From Actinomycetota bacterium (GTDB lineage: Bacteria > Actinomycetota > AC-67), in contig DASWIP010000012.1 of assembly GCA_036397635.1 (NCBI GenBank), forward strand, positions 11,148-75,147: a DNA stretch of 64,000 bases, read 5' to 3'. The notes beneath the pieces were generated by a model that was not told the origin of the DNA, searched no databases, and saw nothing but the letters and a program-made list of their open reading frames with translations. Position numbers and translations under genes: made by a program. Positions 15,149 to 64,000 of the stretch are shown here, piece by piece (the stretch's first letter is position 1; the number at the start of each line of letters is the position of its first letter).

Positions 15149-15550
15149 TCAGTCGCGTACCGGTTGGAGGCCGTAGCGTTCCATGCCCGCGACGAAAGTC
15201 ATGATCTTGGTCACCCCGAGCGCGCGCATGAGCGTGATGCTCGTGGCATCCACGTACGACAAGGGATCCTTGACGCCCGTGCCGAGGATCCCGAACGCCT
15301 CCGCTTGCATCGCCTGCGTGACCGGAAGGATCTTGAGCTGGTGTGATGAGCTGATCACGCCGAGCAGCCAGCGCGCAGCCATCGCGCCAACGCGAGGAGC
15401 CAAGAAGTCCCAGAGCCGGCCAAACACCAGGTGCGTGCTGACCCACAGCTCGTTCCCGACCCCGAACGCGAGCAGCTCCACCGCCTCATCGTGGTAGGGA
15501 TCTCGCTCGTTGACCAACGCGATCAGGTACGAGGAGTCGATGAAAATCAC
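15149..15550 (-). CDS. vapC: PIN-domain ribonuclease toxin VapC
   Basis: MIFIDSSYLIAL...D...D PIN signature. GTG start overlaps the vapB TGA stop (GTGA). Confidence 0.85.
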   Translation of the reverse strand: MIFIDSSYLIALVNERDPYHDEAVELLAFGVGNELWVSTHLVFGRLWDFLAPRVGAMAARWLLGVISSSHQLKILPVTQAMQAEAFGILGTGVKDPLSYVDATSITLMRALGVTKIMTFVAGMERYGLQPVRD

Positions 15551-15892: not shown

Positions 15893-15932
15893 AGTGTGTG
15901 CGTGTGCGGCTCGAGCGGCACACGCACACACT
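15893..15932. repeat. Palindromic element copy A: AGTGTGTGCGTGTGC-GGCTCGAGCG-GCACACGCACACACT (15-10-15)
   Basis: Read directly from the sequence: perfect 15-bp inverted arms with a 10-bp spacer. 115 bp 3' of the guaA stop and 137 bp 5' of the vapB start. A second copy is at 24607-24644. Confidence 0.9.
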
Positions 15933-24606: not shown

Positions 24607-24644
24607 GTCGTGTGCGTGTGCAACCGGAGGTGCACACGCACACG
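24607..24644. repeat. Palindromic element copy B: TCGTGTGCGTGTGC-AACCGGAGGT-GCACACGCACACGA (14-10-14), flanked by the 12-bp palindrome GGACAGCTGTCC at 24591-24602
   Basis: Read directly. Shares the core GTGTGCGTGTGC-N10-GCACACGCACAC with copy A. Lies between the tsaD stop (24739) and CIRCE/groES. Confidence 0.9.
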
Positions 24645-24738
24645 ATCGGCCACACCGATGTGCCCGCCACGGCGACGGGATGGACTCGATCGCGCCCCCC
24701 GGGACCCCAGCCCAGACCCAGGCTCCCGACGCCCGGGA

Positions 24739-47512: not shown

Positions 47513-47881
47513 TTACAGCACCTCCGGGGCCAGTGAGATGATCTTCATGAACTTCTTATCGCGGAGCTCTCGCGCCACCGGGCCGAAGATACGGGTCCCG
47601 CGAGGCTGGAGCTGCTCGTTGATCAGAACCGCAGCGTTCTCGTCGAAGCGGATGTACGTGCCGTCCGGGCGCCGGCGTTCCTTCTTGGTGCGCACGATCA
47701 CCGCGCGAACCACGTCGCCCTTCTTGACCGGCGCGCCCGGCAAGGCAGCCTTGACGGAGGCGACGATGATGTCGCCGATGCCCGCATAGCGACGCCCCGA
47801 TCCCCCGAGCACCCGGATACACAGGATCTCGCGCGCGCCGGTGTTATCGGCGACCTTGAGCCTCGACTCTTGCTGGATCAC
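47513..47881 (-). CDS. rplN: 50S ribosomal protein L14
   Basis: (M)[27 protein letters not shown]... GTG start (SD GGAGAAGG) overlaps the rpsQ TGA. Confidence 0.94.
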
Positions 47882-51723: not shown

Positions 51724-52394
51724 GCGCTCTCACCACCCTTGGCAGACGCTTTGACGCCCGGCATCGCGCTCGCGCGCTCCTGCAGCTTTTCGATCGCGGC
51801 TTTCGTGAACAGGATCCAGTCCCGCGCGAGGATGTCGTACACGTTGATCTGATCGACCGTCAGGAGATGCACGCGCGGCAGATTGCGGAAGGATCGGTCG
51901 ACGCTCTGGTCCAGCTGCTCGACGACCAGGAGGACCTTGCCTTCCCCCAGACCGATCTCGTTGAGCAGCGCGACCGCCTCCTTCGTCTTCGGTGTCTCGA
52001 AGGAGATCGAGTCGATCACCGCCACCTTGTCGTCGCGCGCCCGGTCGGTCAGCGCCGAACGAAGGGCGAGCGCTCGCACCTTCCGGTTGACCTTCTTGTC
52101 GTGGCTGCGGGGGATCGGGCCGAACACGATGCCGCCGCCGGTGTAGTGCGGCGCGCGGATCGAACCCTGGCGCGCGCGACCGGTGCCCTTCTGCCGGTAC
52201 GGTTTCCGGCCGCCGCCGCGCACCTCGCCGCGGGTCTTGGTCTTGTGCGTCCCGCGGCGCCGTGCCGCCATCTGCGCGACCACGACCTGATGCATGACCG
52301 GGACGTTGACCTGAGCGTCAAAGAGCACGGGATCCAGGGGCACCTCACCGATGACCATGCCCGCCTGGGAGCGGAGAGGGACGTTCTCGCTCAC
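51720..52394 (-). CDS. rplD: 50S ribosomal protein L4
   Basis: 224 aa; ...[28 protein letters not shown]... Confidence 0.94.
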
Positions 52395-53050
52395 GTCGTC
52401 GCCCCCTTCTTCACCGCGTTGCGGATCATCACGAGCCCGCCGTTCGGGCCGGGAACGCCTCCACGGATCATCAGGAGGTTCCGCTCGAGATCGGACGACA
52501 CGACCTGCTGGGACAGGACCGTGACGCGTTCACTACCCATCCGGCCCGGCCCCTTGGTCCCCGGCCACACGCGCCCGGGCGTGGTCCCGGCTCCGATCGA
52601 CCCGGTCGAGCGGTGCTTGCGTTCAGTACCGTGCGAATCGCGGAGGCCCGAGAAGTTGTGGCGCTTCATCGCCCCGGCGAACCCCTTGCCTTTCGACACC
52701 CCTCGCACGTCCACGTGGTCCCCGGGGGAGAACAGCTCTACGGTGATCGACGATCCGACCTCGAAGTCGCCGGCGTCGTCGGTGCGTATCTCGACCAGAT
52801 GGCGGCTAGGCCGGACGCCGGCCTTGTCGAAGTGACCCTTCCGCGGCTTGCTCAGCCGCTTCTCGGGGATCTCCCCGAAGCCGAGCTGGACCGCGGCGTA
52901 GCCGTCACGTTCGGGCGTGCGTATCTGGGTGACCACGCACGGTCCCGCCTCGATCAAGGTAACCGGCACGGCACGTCCCTCATCATCGAAGATCTGGGTC
53001 ATCCCCAGCTTCGTTCCGAGCAGAGCCTTCACATTCGGCATCGTCTGCAC
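52391..53050 (-). CDS. rplC: 50S ribosomal protein L3
   Basis: 219 aa; ...[33 protein letters not shown]... Confidence 0.94.
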
Positions 53051-53362
53051 CTATAGCTTGATCTCGATATCCACGCCGGCCGGCAGGTCGAGCCGCATCA
53101 GCGAATCCACGGTCTTGGGCGTGGGATCGAGGATGTCGATCAACCGCTTGTGCGTGCGCATCTCGAAATGCTCACGCGAGTCCTTGTCCTTGTGAGGCGA
53201 GCGGATGACGCAATAGACGGTGCGCTCCGTCGGCAGCGGGACAGGGCCGGCGACCTTCGCCCCCGTACGGGTCGCCGTGTCCACGATCTTGCGCGCGGAC
53301 TGGTCGATGACCTCGTGGTCGTAGGCCTTGAGCCTGATCCGGATCTTCTGTTGCGTCGCCAC
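53051..53362 (-). CDS. rpsJ: 30S ribosomal protein S10
   Basis: (M)[29 protein letters not shown]... GTG start with SD GAGGGG. Confidence 0.93.
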
Positions 53363-53375
53363 TCGGTTCCCCTCG

Positions 53376-54563
<1,188 letters not shown>

Positions 54564-54601
54564 CGTCTTCCTCCCCTCGAGAGTGAACCCCTCTCGGACC
54601 G

Positions 54602-56749
54602 TTACTCTCCTCGAACCTTTGCGATGATCTCGCGCTGGATGCTCTCCGGCACGCGGTCGTACGAGTGGAACTGCATCGTTGACGTCGCCCGGCCCTGGGT
54701 CTTGGACCGCAGATCCGTGACGTAGCCGAACATCTCTGCCAGCGGGACGCGCGCGCGGATCACCTGCAGGTTGCCGCGCGGCTCCATCCGATCGATCTTG
54801 CCGCGACGCGACGTGATGTCGCCGATGACATCGCCCATGTTCTCTTCCGGCGTCACCACCTCGAGCTCCATCACCGGCTCGAGCAGCGCGGCACCCGCCT
54901 TGCGGGCCGCTTCCTTCACCGCCATCGAACCGGCGATCCGGAAAGCCATCTCCGAGGAGTCCACGTCGTGGTACTTGCCGTCCACCAGCGTGACGCGCAC
55001 GTCGACCATGGGATACCCGGCGAGGACGCCCGACTCCAGCGCCTCCTGCACTCCTTCGTCGACGGCGGGGATGTACTCCTGCGGGATGGTGCCACCTCGG
55101 ATCTTGCTCACGAACTCGAAGCCACCGCCGGGACCGGTCGGCTCGAGGTCGAGCACGACCACCGCGAACTGGCCCTTGCCTCCGGTCTGACGGACGAACC
55201 GTAACTCGTGATCCGAGACCGGCTTGGTGATGGTCTCGCGGTATGCGACCTGAGGCTTGCCGACATTGGCGTCCACTTTGAACTCGCGGCGGAGCCGGTC
55301 GACCAGCACGTCCAGGTGCAGCTCGCCCATCCCCGAGATGACCGTCTGGGCGGTCTCCTCTTCTGTGCGTACCTGGAACGTCGGATCCTCTTCGGCGAGA
55401 GCCGCAAGCGACTTGGACAGCTTCTCCTGGTCGGCCTTGGTCTTCGGCTCGATCGCGATCGAGATGACCGGTACCGGGAACGTCATCGCCTCGAGCACGA
55501 TCGGGTCGGCCGGGCCGCACAGCGTGTCCCCGGTCGTGGTGTGCTTCAGCCCCACCGCGGCAACGATGTCGCCCGCATAGGCGGCTTCCTTGTCCTCGCG
55601 GTGGTTGGCGTGCATCTGCAGGATCCGACCGATGCGCTCTTTACGTTCCTTCGTCGCGTTGAAAACGTGACTGCCGGCCTTGACCATCCCGGAGTACACG
55701 CGGAAGTAGGTCACTTTGCCCACGTAGGGGTCGGCCGCGATCTTGAACGCCAGCGCGCTGAACGGCTGATCGTCGGCGGGCGCGCGCTGAGCCTGCTCGC
55801 CGCCGGGCAGCTTGCCGACGACCGGCATGACGTCAAGCGGTGAGGGCAAGTACTGCACGATCGCGTCGAGCAGCGGTTGCACCCCCTTGTTCTTGAACGC
55901 AGAGCCGCAGAGCACCGGCGTCGCCTTGCCCGACAGCGTCGCGGCGCGCACCGCCTGCCGCAGGTGCTCGGGTGTGGGGTGGGCGCCGCCGACGTAGGCT
56001 TCCATGACCTCTTCGTCGTAGTCGGCGAGTGCCTCGAATAGCTCGTGCCGCCAGTGGTCGACCAGCTCGGCCATGTCCTCGGGGAGCGGCTCGTCGATCC
56101 ACTCCTCGCCCTTGCCACCCTCCGTCCAAACGTGGGCGACCATGGCGATCAGGTCGACGACCCCGCGGAATCCGTCCTCGGCGCCGATCGGCAGCTGGAG
56201 AGGCAAGGGATGCGAATCGAGCCGGTCGCGGATCATGTCCATGGTTCGGTAGAAGTCGGCGCCGATCCGGTCCATCTTGTTCACGAAGCAGATGCGCGGC
56301 ACGCGGTAGCGATCGGCCTGACGCCAGACCGTCTCGGTCTGTGGCTCGACCCCAGCAACGGCATCGAAGACGGCCACGGCGCCGTCGAGCACGCGCAGGC
56401 TCCGTTCCACCTCCACGGTAAAGTCCACGTGGCCGGGCGTATCGATGATGTTGATCCAGTGGTCTTTCCAGTGGCACGTGGTCGCGGCAGATGTGATGGT
56501 GATGCCGCGCTCCTGCTCCTGGACCATCCAGTCCATCACCGCGGTCCCCTCGTGCACCTCGCCGACCTTGTAGGTCTTGCCGGTGTAGTAGAGGATCCGC
56601 TCGGTGGTGGTCGTCTTGCCCGCGTCGATGTGGGCCATGATCCCGATGTTGCGCGTGCGAGCAAGCGGATACTCGCGGATCACGAGTTCCTTCTCCTTGC
56701 CCGTCTTCGTAGCAACAGTCTCTGACATCTTCTCTGCCGGGGAAGCCAT
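54602..56749 (-). CDS. fusA: Elongation factor G
   Basis: [25 protein letters not shown]... (about 700 aa), with an about 20-aa N-terminal extension. A start at the ATG at 56728 is also possible. Confidence 0.95.
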
Positions 56750-56756
56750 CGTCTCC

Positions 56757-57227
56757 TTACCAACGGTAGTGTGCGAACGCCTTGTTCGATTCCGCCATCT
56801 TGTGCAGGTCTTCCTTGCGCTTCACGCTGGCACCGGTGTTGTTCAGGGCATCGACCAATTCCGCAGCCAGCCGATCGCTCATCGACTTCTCACGCCGGGA
56901 CCGCGAGTTCTGCACCAACCAACGTAGGGCGAGCGTGACCGCACGCCGCGACGGAACTTCGACCGGGACCTGGTACGTCGCACCGCCGACGCGACGCGAG
57001 CGAACCTCGAGCTGCGGCCGGATGTTGTCGATCGCCTTCTTCAGCCCAGTCACCTGGTCGCTGCCCGTCCGATCCTTGACCACGTCAAGGGCGCTGTAGA
57101 CGATCCGCTCGGCCGTCCCCCGCTTCCCGCGCGCGAGCACCTTGTTGATGAGCTGAGTTATGAGCACGCTGCCGTACACGGGATCAGGCATGATCTCGCG
57201 CTTCGGGATCGGTCCCTTCCTCGGCAT
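56757..57227 (-). CDS. rpsG: 30S ribosomal protein S7
   Basis: [20 protein letters not shown]... Confidence 0.95.
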
Positions 57228-57288
57228 GCTCTCTCGTTCTCCTCAGCACAAGCGGGCCCCAGCCGATCGGCCGAGACCCGCGGGTCTC

Positions 57289-57660
57289 CTACTGGTCTTT
57301 CTTGGCTCCGTATTTGGAGCGAGCCTGCTTCCGGTCTCGCACGCCGGCCGTGTCCAGCGCAGCGCGCACGACCTTGTACCGAACGCCGGGCAGATCCTTC
57401 ACCCGGCCGCCCCTGACCAGCACGATCGAATGCTCCTGCAGGTTGTGGCCGACGCCTGGGATGTAGGCGTTCACCTCCGACCCGCCGGTGAGCCGAACGC
57501 GCGCGACCTTCCGCAGCGCGGAGTTCGGTTTCTTGGGCGTCATGGTGAACACGCGGGTGCAGACGCCGCGGCGCTGGGGTGAACCCTTGAGCGCAGGCGT
57601 CTTCGTCTTGGACCGCTTGGTCTTGCGGCCATGACGCACCAGCTGTTGGATCGTCGGCAC
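57289..57660 (-). CDS. rpsL: 30S ribosomal protein S12
   Basis: (M)[36 protein letters not shown]... GTG start with SD AAGGAG. Confidence 0.95.
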
Positions 57661-57806
57661 TTCGGTTCTCCTTAGGGGACGTCCCAGGTCCGTCCGATGG
57701 GCGCACTGAGCCCGCGAAAAGGGATGGTTGGCTCATCGCGGACACGTCCAGACCACGCCCTGATCCAGACGCGAGGGCCTAGGCTACCTGGGGAAACACA
57801 GGAGTG

Positions 57807-58622
57807 TCAACGCGGTTCGCGAGCCCCGGCGGAACCGGCGGGTGGGGTCTCGACGCGCGAGCGGACGGCGCGCTCCAGCGCATCCCGCAGCTCTCGTCGT
57901 CCGACCCCGAGTTCATCGAGGATCCCCGCTCCCCAGCCCTCACCGTTTCGGAGCACACCGAGTAGCACATGATGAGGCTCGATGTAGTTGTGTCCGAGCC
58001 CAACGGCTTCCCGCATGGCCAGCTCGAGGACGTGTTTCGCCCGGGGACTGAACGGGATCGGCGGACCTGCCGGCACAGGATGTGTCCCGGCACCGAGGGC
58101 TTGTTCGACCTTGCGCCGCACCCCGGCTGAGGTCAACCCCAGCTCCAGCAGGGTCTGCGTGGAGAGCCAACGGGGCTCAGTGAGCGTCCCGAGAAGCAGA
58201 TGCTCTGTTCCGACCTGTGGATGACCAAGCTCGTGCGCGAGCTCACGAGCGCGGACCACGGCCCGCCGAGCGTCGACGGTGAAGCGCTCGATCCCGGGCT
58301 TCTCCAGGCCAAGCGTGAACTCCGCTACCCTGAGGAGCTGCTCGAGCATCCCATGACGCTTCGAGCCGGCGACGACCTGCAGCCGGCCACCCACATACCG
58401 TTGCTGAGCTGCCTGTTTGGACACGCCGAGCACCTTGCCCACCTCGGCCCAGGAGTGCCCGGCGGCGCGCGCAGCCTGAACGAAATGGTCCACCAGCAGA
58501 TCAGCCAGCGCCGTGAGCCCGGCCCCGCGATCCACCGCCGCGGCGAGTTGGTTCAACGGGCCGCTTTCATCGGCCTCGCGGATGCGGGCGATCAGCTGAT
58601 CCAACGACGGGTCCGCCGCCAT
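57807..58622 (-). CDS. HTH plus tandem Clp_N (Clp R-domain) repeat protein without an AAA+ module (ClpC2-like stand-alone ClpC N-domain homolog)
   Basis: N-terminal HTH-like SWAEVGKVLGVSKQAAQQRY. Two Clp_N repeats: FTVDARRAVVRARELAHELGHPQVGTEHLLLGTL and FSPRAKHVLELAMREAVGLGHNYIEPHHVLLGVL. ATG at 58622. Confidence 0.75.
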   Translation of the reverse strand: MAADPSLDQLIARIREADESGPLNQLAAAVDRGAGLTALADLLVDHFVQAARAAGHSWAEVGKVLGVSKQAAQQRYVGGRLQVVAGSKRHGMLEQLLRVAEFTLGLEKPGIERFTVDARRAVVRARELAHELGHPQVGTEHLLLGTLTEPRWLSTQTLLELGLTSAGVRRKVEQALGAGTHPVPAGPPIPFSPRAKHVLELAMREAVGLGHNYIEPHHVLLGVLRNGEGWGAGILDELGVGRRELRDALERAVRSRVETPPAGSAGAREPR

Positions 58623-58634
58623 GCGTCAATCATG

Positions 58635-58660
58635 CCTTGACGTACCAGGGTACGTCAAGG
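58635..58660. promoter_or_regulatory. Perfect 12-2-12 palindrome CCTTGACGTACC-AG-GGTACGTCAAGG, 13-38 nt upstream of the ClpC2-like start codon (candidate operator)
   Basis: Read directly. Each arm contains TTGAC. A TTGACA hexamer is also at 58666-58671. Confidence 0.6.
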
Positions 58661-58748
58661 ATATCTTGACAGTGGCGACACGCCCTGCGCGCCGGAGATG
58701 GCGATGGCCCCGGGAGGCGCCCCGGGGCCATCGCAAGTGATGGTTCGG

Positions 58749-62669
<3,921 letters not shown>

Positions 62670-62672
62670 TCG

Positions 62673-64000
62673 TTATCCCTCCACGTCCACGCTCGAGGGT
62701 TCGCGGCGGCTCAGGTCGATCCCGAGCTCTTCCGCTGCGCGGAAGATGTCCTCGTCGGAGTCGCGCATCTCGATCTCTTTGCCTTCCGCCGACAGGACGT
62801 CGACGTTCAAGCACAGCGACTGCATCTCCTTGATCAAGACCTTGAAGGATTCGGGGATCCCCGGCTCGGGGATGTTCTCTCCCTTGACGATGGCCTCGTA
62901 GACCTTCACCCGACCCATCACGTCGTCGCTCTTGATCGTCAGTAGCTCCTGGAGGGCGTAGGCGGCGCCATAGGCTTCCAGCGCCCACACCTCCATCTCG
63001 CCGAACCGCTGACCGCCGAACTGCGCCTTCCCCCCCAGCGGTTGCTGGGTGATCATCGAGTACGGGCCGGTGGAGCGGGCGTGGATCTTGTCGTCCACCA
63101 GGTGAGCCAGCTTCAGGATGTAGATGTGGCCGACGGTGACCGGCACCTCGAACGGCTCGCCCGAACGGCCGTCGTAAAGTCGCGCCTTCCCATCCGGACC
63201 CACCAGCCGCACGCCGTCACGGTTCGGGCGGGCGTGCAGGAGGAGATCGGCGATCTCGGTGTCCTTCGCGCCGTCGAAGACCGGCGTCGCGAAGTTGATC
63301 GGCCCCTCGACGTCCCTGTGCGCTTCGGTCCAGCCATGGCCGCGCATCCAGTCGGGTTCCTCGGGGAAGCTCCACCCGACGTGGGCGCACCAGCCAAGAT
63401 GGGCCTCGAGCACCTGCCCGAGGTTCATACGGCTCGGCACGCCGAGCGGGTTGAGGATGATGTCCACCGGAGTCCCATCCTCGAGGAAGGGCATGTCCTC
63501 CTCGGGCAGGATCTTGGCGATCACTCCCTTGTTCCCATGCCGACCGGCGAGCTTGTCGCCTTCGGAGATCTTGCGCTTCTGAGCGCAGTGGACGCGGACC
63601 AGCTCGTTGACGCCGGGCGGCAACTCGTCGCCGAGCTCGCGCGAGAACTTGCGGACGGCGATGACCGTCCCCGACTCCCCGTGGGGAACCTTCAGAGACG
63701 TGTCGCGGACCTCGCGAGCCTTCTCGCCGAAGATCGCGCGCAGGAGCCGCTCCTCGGGGGTCAGCTCGGTCTCACCCTTCGGCGTGACCTTGCCGACCAG
63801 CACGTCGCCGGGCTTGACCTCGGCGCCGATCCGGATGATGCCCTCTTCATCGAGGTCCTTGAGCACCTCGTCGGCGACGTTGGGTATGTCCCGGGTGACC
63901 TCCTCGGGTCCCAGCTTGGTGTCGCGCGCGTCCACTTCGTACTCCTCGATGTGGATCGAGGTGAGCGTGTCTTGCTTGACCAGCCTCTCGGACAGGATGA
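62673..64000 (-). CDS. rpoB: DNA-directed RNA polymerase subunit beta (C-terminal part; the gene continues beyond the window)
   Basis: The C-terminal about 440 aa of rpoB (...[33 protein letters not shown]...), ending TAA at 62673. The frame is open to the window edge. Confidence 0.95.

Follow-up and report, generated by a model that had tools for sequence, protein, structure and literature searches.

What does a gene for a small Clp-related protein do between rpoC and rpsL, and what is the meaning of the perfect palindrome at its start? The question is raised by a 64-kb stretch (64,000 nucleotides) of contig DASWIP010000012.1 of an Actinomycetota bacterium; "the window" means this whole stretch, in which the clpC2-like gene is one feature. 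The answer favoured by the present analysis, with a probability of roughly 85%, is that the gene encodes a ligand-responsive autorepressor of the ClpC2 family. Mycobacterial ClpC2 (Rv2667) has been published as an autorepressor, a sponge for cyclomarin and rufomycin and a sensor of phosphoarginine (pArg) (PMC10030653; PMC13345244). ClpC2 is under active study both as a candidate pArg sensor and as the reason why antibiotics targeting ClpC1 (cyclomarins, rufomycins, BacPROTACs) become less potent. Earlier publications cover the ClpC2 system, including its operator and the leaderless autoregulation, and the locus is a member of this described system. What is unusual here is the re-tuned sensor pocket, the covariation between the helix-turn-helix (HTH) and the operator, and the fixed position before the str operon.

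Domain composition and family assignment

The preliminary description of the locus had reported a gene between rpoC and rpsL for a ClpC2-like protein with two Clp_N repeats and no AAA+ ATPase, and had proposed a Clp_N profile search and an alignment to the ClpC1 N-terminal domain (NTD) and ClpC2 as checks. Each of these points was borne out. The 271-aa open reading frame (ORF) lies on the minus strand, as do all genes in this part of the window, and is flanked by rpoC and rpsL. The Pfam search revealed Clp_N in two stretches of the protein (E = 1.7e-22; 79.7 bits, the cut-off being 20.7) and no AAA+ domain in its 271 residues. The NCBIfam models of Clp ATPases match it through the N-domains only, with 14-49 bits against cut-offs of 885-1900. 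A ClpC/ClpC1-type AAA+ unfoldase was excluded, because the ORF ends at 271 aa, without the two AAA+ modules and the middle domain.

In phmmer comparisons with solved structures, residues 111-247 matched the NTD of Mycobacterium tuberculosis (Mtb) ClpC1 (E = 7e-33), and the C-domain matched ClpC2's C-terminal domain (CTD; 8AD9, E = 2e-20). Residues 6-67 matched 8ADA, the N-domain of ClpC2/Rv2667 (E = 4e-8), and residues 7-76 matched the antitoxin RelI (9SDC, E = 7e-6). The pair D41-R52 aligns to D46-R57 of Mtb ClpC2, a salt bridge that serves as the dimerisation contact in that protein (PMC10030653), and R52 is invariant in 117 family sequences. An AlphaFold2 (AF2) model built from the alignment of these 117 sequences, with a mean predicted local distance difference test (pLDDT) score of 86.9, contains an N-domain with helices at residues 7-17, 22-53, 58-65 and 69-76, followed by a linker that is disordered, a helix of low confidence at 91-103 and an eight-helix C-domain with pLDDT > 90. 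Foldseek superimposed the C-domain on the ClpC1 NTD with a template modelling score, TM(target), of 0.95. As judged from sequence, the protein is composed of an N-terminal helical dimerisation/HTH module, a flexible linker and a module resembling the ClpC1 N-domain. A RelI-type antitoxin was excluded as well: the neighbours are rpoC and rpsL, no toxin gene is present, and the protein has a Clp_N domain.

By these likenesses, the gene belongs to the known ClpC2 family of actinobacteria, as a divergent member and not a standard ortholog. Its architecture, operator and promoter are those of the family; its pArg pocket is not.

Operators and promoter of the clpC2-like gene

The published ClpC2 operator reads CGTCAAC-n5-GTTGACG, one copy of which is located 1-2 nt upstream of the ORF (PMC10030653). 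Most species have a second copy upstream, and the pair covers the -35 and -10 elements of a promoter whose mRNA is leaderless. The operators are bound by ClpC2, which represses its own gene and is released by cyclomarin A, rufomycin and phosphoarginine (PMC10030653; PMC13345244).

The start of the clpC2-like gene does carry the perfect 12-2-12 palindrome announced by the preliminary description. It is an inverted repeat, CCTTGACGTACC / GGTACGTCAAGG, at 58635-58646 and 58649-58660, with arms that are 100% complementary and 2 nt (AG) between them; no second copy occurs in the window, and none of 100 shuffles reproduced it. Its position was given correctly, though the distance to the ATG is 12 nt (58623-58634) rather than 13, a difference of counting. 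The palindrome straddles two 19-bp dyads of the ClpC2 type, O1 and O2, offset by 29 bp (Table 1). O2 agrees with the published consensus in 12 of the 14 specified positions and occupies the published position. Exact GTCAA-N7-TTGAC sites occur twice in the 64 kb, both at this promoter. The promoter scan found TTGACG-18-CATGAT, with 9 of 12 matches, as one site against 0.1 expected; in the same register the -10 reads TAGAGT, TAGCCT or CATACT in relatives and TATGGT in canonical family members.

An overlap of the palindrome with a Shine-Dalgarno sequence had also been suggested, and this part did not stand, as no Shine-Dalgarno sequence precedes the ATG. O2 ends 1 nt and the -10 lies six nt before the start codon, so the geometry is that of a leaderless transcript. 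The clpC2-like mRNA is probably leaderless, with the transcription start site at the start codon.

The same arrangement was found upstream of the genes at the related loci L005, L008, L010, L011 and L172, where both dyads are present in the same order, 9-10 nt apart, and O2 ends 1-2 nt before the start codon; the upstream regions of L005 and L008 align to the window without gaps. The spacers between the dyads in these five loci (GACCCCCGAA, GGACCGCGAT, CATCACCGAA, CGAGCCGGTG and GTCATAGAC) are unrelated and non-palindromic. In a set of 76 dual-operator promoters of the family (the window and 75 related loci), the offset of the dyads is 28 bp in 46 and 29 bp in 30, and 1-3 nt lie between the operator and the start codon. 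Of the 12 arm positions in the window palindrome, eight belong to the conserved operator half-sites and their flanks, and four are due to symmetry of the spacer. Contiguous extra complementary spacer pairs number 0, 1, 2, 3 and 4 in 38, 23, 10, 3 and 2 of the 76 promoters, a roughly geometric decay whose four-pair tail comprises the window and one Nocardia. Since the spacer symmetry is unmatched in relatives and falls in a geometric tail, the perfection of the palindrome is best read as a chance symmetry, apparently superimposed on the inverted repeat that is inherent to every dual-operator ClpC2 promoter.

The agreement with the published operator in sequence, number, spacing and position indicates that the DNA at the gene start is very probably the binding region of the gene's own repressor. 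The autorepression foreseen by the preliminary description is retained in this predicted form; the palindrome as the operator unit is not. It is quite improbable that the 26-bp palindrome is itself the operator, a single dyad bound by an HTH dimer. In its favour, the repeat is free of mismatches, has no second copy in the window and overlaps the -35 and the spacer, but its inner 4+4 bp are unconserved in all six related rpsL-linked loci, where the flanking 19-bp dyads are conserved. Besides, the centres of its half-sites are separated by about 17 bp, while those of the operator defined by experiment are separated by 12 bp (PMC10030653), and the decay of the extra spacer pairs across the 76 promoters also argues against it.

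The palindrome could also be regarded as a hairpin, of RNA or DNA, that acts in transcription, for instance as a second rpoC terminator or an attenuator. The rpoC hairpin is found on the same strand, with the palindrome 40 nt downstream of it, and hairpins without U tracts can terminate transcription in Actinomycetota. Still, a 2-nt loop is sterically impossible, so that the real stem would be shorter; the palindrome is AT-richer than the conserved rpoC hairpin, relatives have no stem complementarity past the operator half-sites, and the terminator scan gave nothing at this place. This makes the hairpin the most improbable of the explanations considered. The GC-rich hairpin following rpoC is presumed to be the rpoC terminator, as an "I-shaped" candidate; it is kept in position, being the same in L005 (417-450) and analogous in L172 (5147-5177).

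Further operator-like sites were recorded. Two sites in the window differ from the operator by one mismatch, 15258-15274 (GACAAGGGATCCTTGAC) and 47739-47755 (GGCAAGGCAGCCTTGAC); about 0.8 are expected, and the existence of other regulon members in the window was rejected because two such sites are at the level of chance. A third exact GTCAA-N7-TTGAC lies about 1 kb upstream of clpC2 in L071 (1785-1801) and L072 (1965-1981), where it may mark an additional regulon member. All six Kitasatospora loci (L034, L040, L058, L061, L064, L087) have CGACAAC instead of CGTCAAC as the left half of the downstream operator, a weakened half-site specific to the genus.

The N-terminal helix-turn-helix and the operator base

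The preliminary description had placed an HTH in the N-terminal part, and the assignment is kept as a putative one. Pfam HTH families were found over residues 48-77 at a sub-threshold level only (E 0.009-0.07). In the AF2 model, helices 58-65 and 69-76 are joined by a turn, and the homologous region of RelI and ClpC2 has been described as an HTH (PMC13284704). The motif SW..(V/I)G..LGV(S/T)KQAAQ.R is the best-conserved stretch of the whole family, with W58, G62, G66 and Q70 invariant and K69, Q73 and R75 nearly invariant in the 117 sequences. The label rests on these four lines of evidence, to which the matches to 8ADA and RelI can be added.

The identity of residue 74, in the second helix, covaries with the sixth base of the operator half-site, as was found in 142 loci with dual operators, each with four half-sites. 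In the 108 loci with Lys74, the sixth base is C in 426 of 432 half-sites (GTCAAC). Gln74 occurs in 33 loci, the window included, and here the base is G in 54, T in 38 and C in 40 of 132 half-sites, that is, G or T in 92 of 132. The only locus with His74 has T in 4/4 half-sites. The window has Gln74 (codon 58401-58403), three GTCAAG half-sites and one GTCAAT. This suggests that residue 74 sets the specificity for the operator base, the N-terminal HTH being the candidate reader of the sequence. Taylor et al. assigned the DNA contact to arginines R185 and R189 of the C-domain (PMC10030653), and the link between residue 74 and the operator base points to the N-terminal HTH where the C-domain had been credited. 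The only crystal structure of a ClpC2 N-domain, 8ADA, stops at residue 72 (...GKSMGV), just short of the conserved SKQAAQ(K/Q)R helix, and so leaves the putative recognition helix unseen in ClpC2 itself.

Ligand-pocket residues

The window protein and its five nearest relatives (P0002-P0006) form a clade of six members, whose key positions were compared with those of 70 canonical homologs found in genomes of species; for the second repeat, the comparison also covered 71 metagenome homologs taken from among the matches listed. The second-repeat motif G-T-E-H (ClpC1 G104-H107) is invariant in 70/70 canonical homologs and almost so in the metagenome set (G 69/71, T 68/71, E 69/71, H 71/71). In the window protein it reads E215-P216-H217-H218. 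The pArg-site position is Pro in all six clade members, against Thr in 70/70 canonical and 68/71 metagenome homologs. The pArg pocket of Mtb ClpC2 is marked by T100 and T197; in the window protein the first has its counterpart in T115, and the second-repeat Thr is replaced. Loop alpha2-alpha3, which lines the pArg pocket (PMC13345244), carries Trp in 6/6 clade members at a position occupied by G, A or S in the 70 canonical homologs. Met203 is conserved throughout the clade (6/6).

The contacts of cyclomarin and rufomycin, ClpC1 F2, F80 and E89 (F96, F172 and E181 in ClpC2), correspond to I111, F191 and E200 of the window protein, so that two of the three are retained. The F2-equivalent is I, L or M in 6/6 clade members against F or Y in 68/70 canonical homologs, and the E89-equivalent is E in the window protein alone within the clade and in 65/70 canonical homologs. 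The preliminary description had compared the protein with decoys for ClpC1-targeting cyclic peptides. The likeness to ClpC2 behind that comparison is confirmed, and the decoy reading is weaker than for canonical ClpC2 on account of Ile111, the loss of E89 in the other clade members and Pro216.

The first repeat presents the reverse picture. Its G-T-E-H is kept in 5/6 clade members and is degenerate in canonical ClpC2 (Thr in 27/70). Position 192 (ClpC1 T81) is S or T in 6/6 clade members, against D in 26, T in 17 and S in 13 of the 70 canonical homologs, the rest being mixed. By the correspondence of residues, the clade is seen to retain the pseudo-symmetric pocket, which is the second pArg site of ClpC1, and to have rebuilt the pocket that ClpC2 normally keeps. 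The swap of pockets may mean sensing via the other site, a new ligand or a loss of sensing. The locus is a natural counter-example to the proposed Actinomycetota-wide sensing of pArg via the T100/T197 pocket, and Pro216, Trp152 and Ile111 are natural mutants for probing what the C-domain senses.

Proposed mechanism and comparison with known systems

As suggested by the orthologs of mycobacteria and Streptomyces that have been characterised by experiment, NTD-mediated dimers would bind to O1 and O2 in a cooperative manner and keep RNA polymerase out, and higher oligomers would probably bridge the two operators. A ligand bound to the C-domain would dissolve the oligomer and free the DNA. The leaderless mRNA would then be made, and the accumulated protein would buffer or compete for ligands or substrates of the ClpC1 receptor domain. 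With the canonical pArg pocket remodelled (Thr to Pro216, Glu to His217, Trp152) and Ile111 present, recognition of the inducer is probably unlike that of mycobacterial ClpC2, and the pseudo-symmetric G-T-E-H pocket of the first repeat would be the best candidate sensing site in the clade.

Several observations weigh against an autorepressor of this kind. The DNA binding, the transcription start site and the ligand response are all ascribed to the clpC2-like protein by homology. The C-domain is nearer to the ClpC1 NTD (identity 44-47%, root-mean-square deviation 1.4 A) than to the CTD of mycobacterial ClpC2 (32-38%, 3.4-3.9 A), as was found by Foldseek. The same program gave no significant match for the isolated N-domain (single-sequence model, pLDDT 76; best E = 2.8), although the chains listed are nearly all HTH DNA binders with Fis at the head, which is suggestive only. 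Of the DNA-contact arginines R185 and R189, the first alone is retained (R204, with G208 at the second position). The right half of O2 (ATTGACG) and the -10 CATGAT are imperfect. The association of Lys or Gln with the operator base is strong, but it may rest on few independent evolutionary events and is supportive, not proof. Finally, the pArg-site Thr and the aromatic F2-equivalent, both held to be conserved in ClpC2, are missing, so that ligand-triggered release may be different or absent.

The nearest system is ClpC2 of M. tuberculosis, M. smegmatis and Streptomyces thermoviolaceus (Rv2667; PDB 8ADA, 8AD9, 8B9O, 9P2P; PMC10030653, PMC13345244). The window protein shares with it the two domains, the NTD salt bridge, the HTH segment GVSKQAAQ(Q/K)R, the F80- and E89-equivalents, and a pair of pseudopalindromic operators that cover the -35 and -10, the downstream one ending 1 nt before the start codon in leaderless geometry. 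It differs in the half-site (GTCAAG/T, not GTCAAC), in Gln instead of Lys at residue 74, in Pro216, His217, Ile111 and Trp152, in the longer linker with the extra helix 91-103, and in the location of the gene between rpoC and rpsL, with its stop inside the rpsL -35.

The ClpC1 NTD (Mtb, PDB 3WDB/3WDC; Bacillus subtilis ClpC NTD with pArg, 5HBN) has the same fold as the C-domain, which, like it, retains the first-repeat G-T-E-H and the S/T opening helix 5, that is, the second pArg pocket of ClpC-type domains. Unlike ClpC1, the window protein has E-P-H-H in the second repeat, Ile at the F2 position, an added HTH/dimerisation domain and no AAA+ modules; for want of the latter it cannot unfold or deliver substrates. 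The RelI antitoxin (Rv2664; PDB 9SDC; PMC13284704) is homologous to residues 7-76, including the motif ...W..IG..LG(V/I)(S/T)(K/R)QAA.QR. In contrast to the window protein, RelI has 85 aa, no Clp_N and a toxin partner, RelS, of the RelE superfamily, and its DNA binding has not been demonstrated. Fis-like small dimeric HTH proteins, in which a C-terminal HTH comes after long N-terminal dimerisation helices, offer a structural analogy only and have no sequence relationship to the window protein.

Distribution and evolution

The nearest relatives, P0002-P0006, share 45-58% identity with the window protein. When 5.8 billion clusters were searched with a profile of the six clade members, no further members were found, the scores falling from >400 to <=222 bits. 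Two metagenome proteins of 474-479 aa, P0121 and P0122, contain three tandem modules resembling the ClpC N-domain, with no HTH and no AAA+. They were rejected as clade members, since their 287-299 bits stem from the triple Clp_N and an HTH is missing. The single-protein search of genome contigs found no relative of the window protein, and an alignment-based rescan of these contigs found canonical homologs only, with identity of 45% or less; the lineage of the window is therefore absent among the GTDB species representatives reached. A search of metagenome contigs likewise found canonical homologs only among the matches listed and did not enlarge the clade. The relatives by elongation factor G (EF-G) are metagenome-assembled genomes named "Actinomycetota bacterium" (80-85% identity) and Acidimicrobiia (about 75%).

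In all loci of the window clade with enough flanking sequence (the window, L005, L008 and L010), rpsL lies directly downstream. It also lies directly 3' of the genes for the divergent homologs P0103 (L172) and P0074 (L175), whose identity to the window protein is 38% and whose source organisms have an EF-G 85% identical to that of the window. Other relatives, L173 and L174 (EF-G 84% and 81%), have no clpC2-like gene, and rpoC is followed directly by rpsL. Among the 160 canonical loci, none has rpsL, rpsG or rpoC near the gene within flanks of up to 2.5-3 kb. The rpoC-clpC2-rpsL arrangement is confined to a small group of uncultured Actinomycetota. In one relative, a PIN-domain and HTH_17 pair resembling a VapBC toxin-antitoxin lies directly upstream of the clpC2-like gene (L008 721-1361, L009 583-1223).

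The clpC2-like gene evolves much faster than its neighbours. Across the loci, identity is 38-56% for the whole protein, 49-68% for the N-domain and 40-60% for the C-domain, compared with 78-96% for RpsL, RpsG, EF-G and RpoC. The ratio of nonsynonymous to synonymous substitution rates (dN/dS) is 0.18-0.36 against relatives, and the unsaturated pair L005/L008 gives 0.30 at dS 0.20, which indicates purifying selection on a functional gene. The GC content at third codon positions (GC3) is 0.75 against 0.83-0.89 for the neighbours. Low GC3 is usual in weakly expressed genes, and horizontal acquisition is not claimed, since the value beside ribosomal neighbours fits a weakly expressed gene.

These data bear on the explanation that the gene is a decaying or neofunctionalised remnant, which autoregulates but senses no ClpC1-type ligand or acts only as a constitutive competitor or adaptor of ClpC1. 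The fast divergence, the loss of the gene in related lineages, the replacement of canonical ligand residues and the lower GC3 are in its favour. Nevertheless, the whole-gene dN/dS is low, the clade substitutions Pro216, Trp152 and Met203 are themselves conserved, the first-repeat G-T-E-H is kept in five of the six proteins, and the C-domain is modelled with high confidence. A remnant is rather unlikely on balance.

The rpsL promoter and a possible link with the str operon

The promoter ascribed to rpsL (Table 1) is an invariant block in four loci, and its sequence, GCGTTGACAC-N-TAGCCT, is kept with or without the insert, as in L173 and L174, which lack it. The stop of the clpC2-like gene sits within the rpsL -35, and in the window clade the 3' end of the ORF has the sequence CCG CGT TGA (CA). 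The conserved C-terminus "-EPR" was rejected as a protein motif: it arises because the last codons and the stop overlap the conserved -35, and the L172 ORF, which stops 37 nt earlier, lacks it. No terminator was predicted between the clpC2-like gene and rpsL. With no terminator and the stop lying in the -35, read-through from the clpC2-like gene is expected, and derepressed transcription would run on into the str operon.

The fixed place before rpsL raises the possibility of transcriptional coupling. It can be supposed that control of the str operon is the main role of the locus, the repressor bound at O1 and O2 acting as a roadblock or gate to rpoBC read-through and the gene's strong leaderless promoter, once induced, driving extra transcription of rpsL-rpsG-fusA-tuf, by which a ClpC1-related stress signal would be tied to the supply of translation factors. 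The site directly upstream of rpsL is kept in all 7 loci of the group with sufficient flank, across two sub-clades that are just 38% identical, the two genes are joined by the embedded stop and by the missing terminator, and none of the 160 canonical loci lies near rpsL. On the other hand, rpsL has a conserved promoter of its own, which is the same in relatives that lack the insert; L173 and L174 lack the gene altogether, so that the coupling is dispensable; within the window the operators are found solely at the promoter of the clpC2-like gene; and the linkage may be one old insertion at a permissive intergenic site. A main role of this kind is unlikely. A combined proposal, in which ClpC2 sensing is re-tuned to another site or a different ligand and hard-wired before the str operon, linking a ClpC1-type stress or antibiotic signal to rpsL-rpsG-fusA-tuf, would be a rather doubtful extension of the ClpC2-family autorepressor.

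Positions of the genes and elements discussed are collected in Table 1. The names rpoC, rpsL, rpsG and fusA are based on Pfam families of locus L001, the sequence of which is identical to the window.

Table 1. Features of the clpC2-like locus; positions are those of the window
Feature	Position	Strand	Remarks
clpC2-like coding sequence	57807..58622	-	ATG at 58622, TGA 57807-57809; 271 aa
Putative helix-turn-helix	58395..58454	-	residues 57-76, SWAEVGKVLGVSKQAAQQRY; most conserved segment of the family
C-terminal ClpC1-NTD-like domain	57849..58301	-	residues 108-258, two Clp_N repeats, eight helices
Ile111 codon	58290..58292	-	ClpC1 F2 / ClpC2 F96 position (cyclomarin contact); from ClpC1 NTD alignment
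Trp152 codon	58167..58169	-	loop alpha2-alpha3 (AF2 assignment); clade-specific
Pro216 codon	57975..57977	-	pArg-site Thr position (Mtb ClpC2 T197 = ClpC1 T105)
Operator O1, TGTCAAG-ATATC-CTTGACG	58653..58671	-	upstream ClpC2-type 19-bp dyad; right half is the -35
Operator O2, CGTCAAG-GCATG-ATTGACG	58624..58642	-	downstream 19-bp dyad; covers the -10; ends 1 nt (C) before ATG
Inter-operator spacer TACCCTGGTA	58643-58652		10 bp
Palindrome of the preliminary description	58635..58660	.	O1 right half-site, spacer and O2 left half-site
-35 hexamer TTGACG	58653..58658	-	promoter scan
-10 hexamer CATGAT	58629..58634	-	centre of O2; six nt to A of ATG
GC-rich hairpin after rpoC	58701..58734	-	perfect 14-bp stem, 6-nt loop, no U tract
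rpoC (RNA polymerase beta')	58749..62669	-	upstream neighbour; 1306-aa ORF; Pfam RNA_pol_Rpb1_1-5 on L001
rpsL promoter	57781..57810	-	-35 TTGACA (57805-57810), 18-nt spacer, -10 TAGCCT (57781-57786); function inferred
Conserved rpsL 5' leader	57661..57774	-	between clpC2-like gene and rpsL
rpsL (S12)	57289..57660	-	downstream neighbour; Pfam on L001
rpsG	56757..57227	-	3' of rpsL; Pfam on L001
fusA	54602..56749	-	3' of rpsG; Pfam on L001

Other observations

The rpsL leader has a predicted GGGCG...CGCCC stem around a hairpin of the form CCGCGAU...AUCGCGG; the 7 sequences compared (the window, L005, L010, L172-L175) contain 2 compensatory pairs. A search of positions 52000-64000 against Rfam at a permissive threshold gave nothing credible, the rpsL leader included. 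Elsewhere in the window, two intergenic palindromes, at 15893-15932 and 24608-24645, share the 12-mer GTGTGCGTGTGC; one has 20-nt arms that are 95% complementary with no spacer, and in the other, perfect 15-nt arms flank an 8-nt spacer. There are four copies of the 12-mer, against 0.6 expected; it may be a common motif, operator or terminator, that has nothing to do with clpC2.

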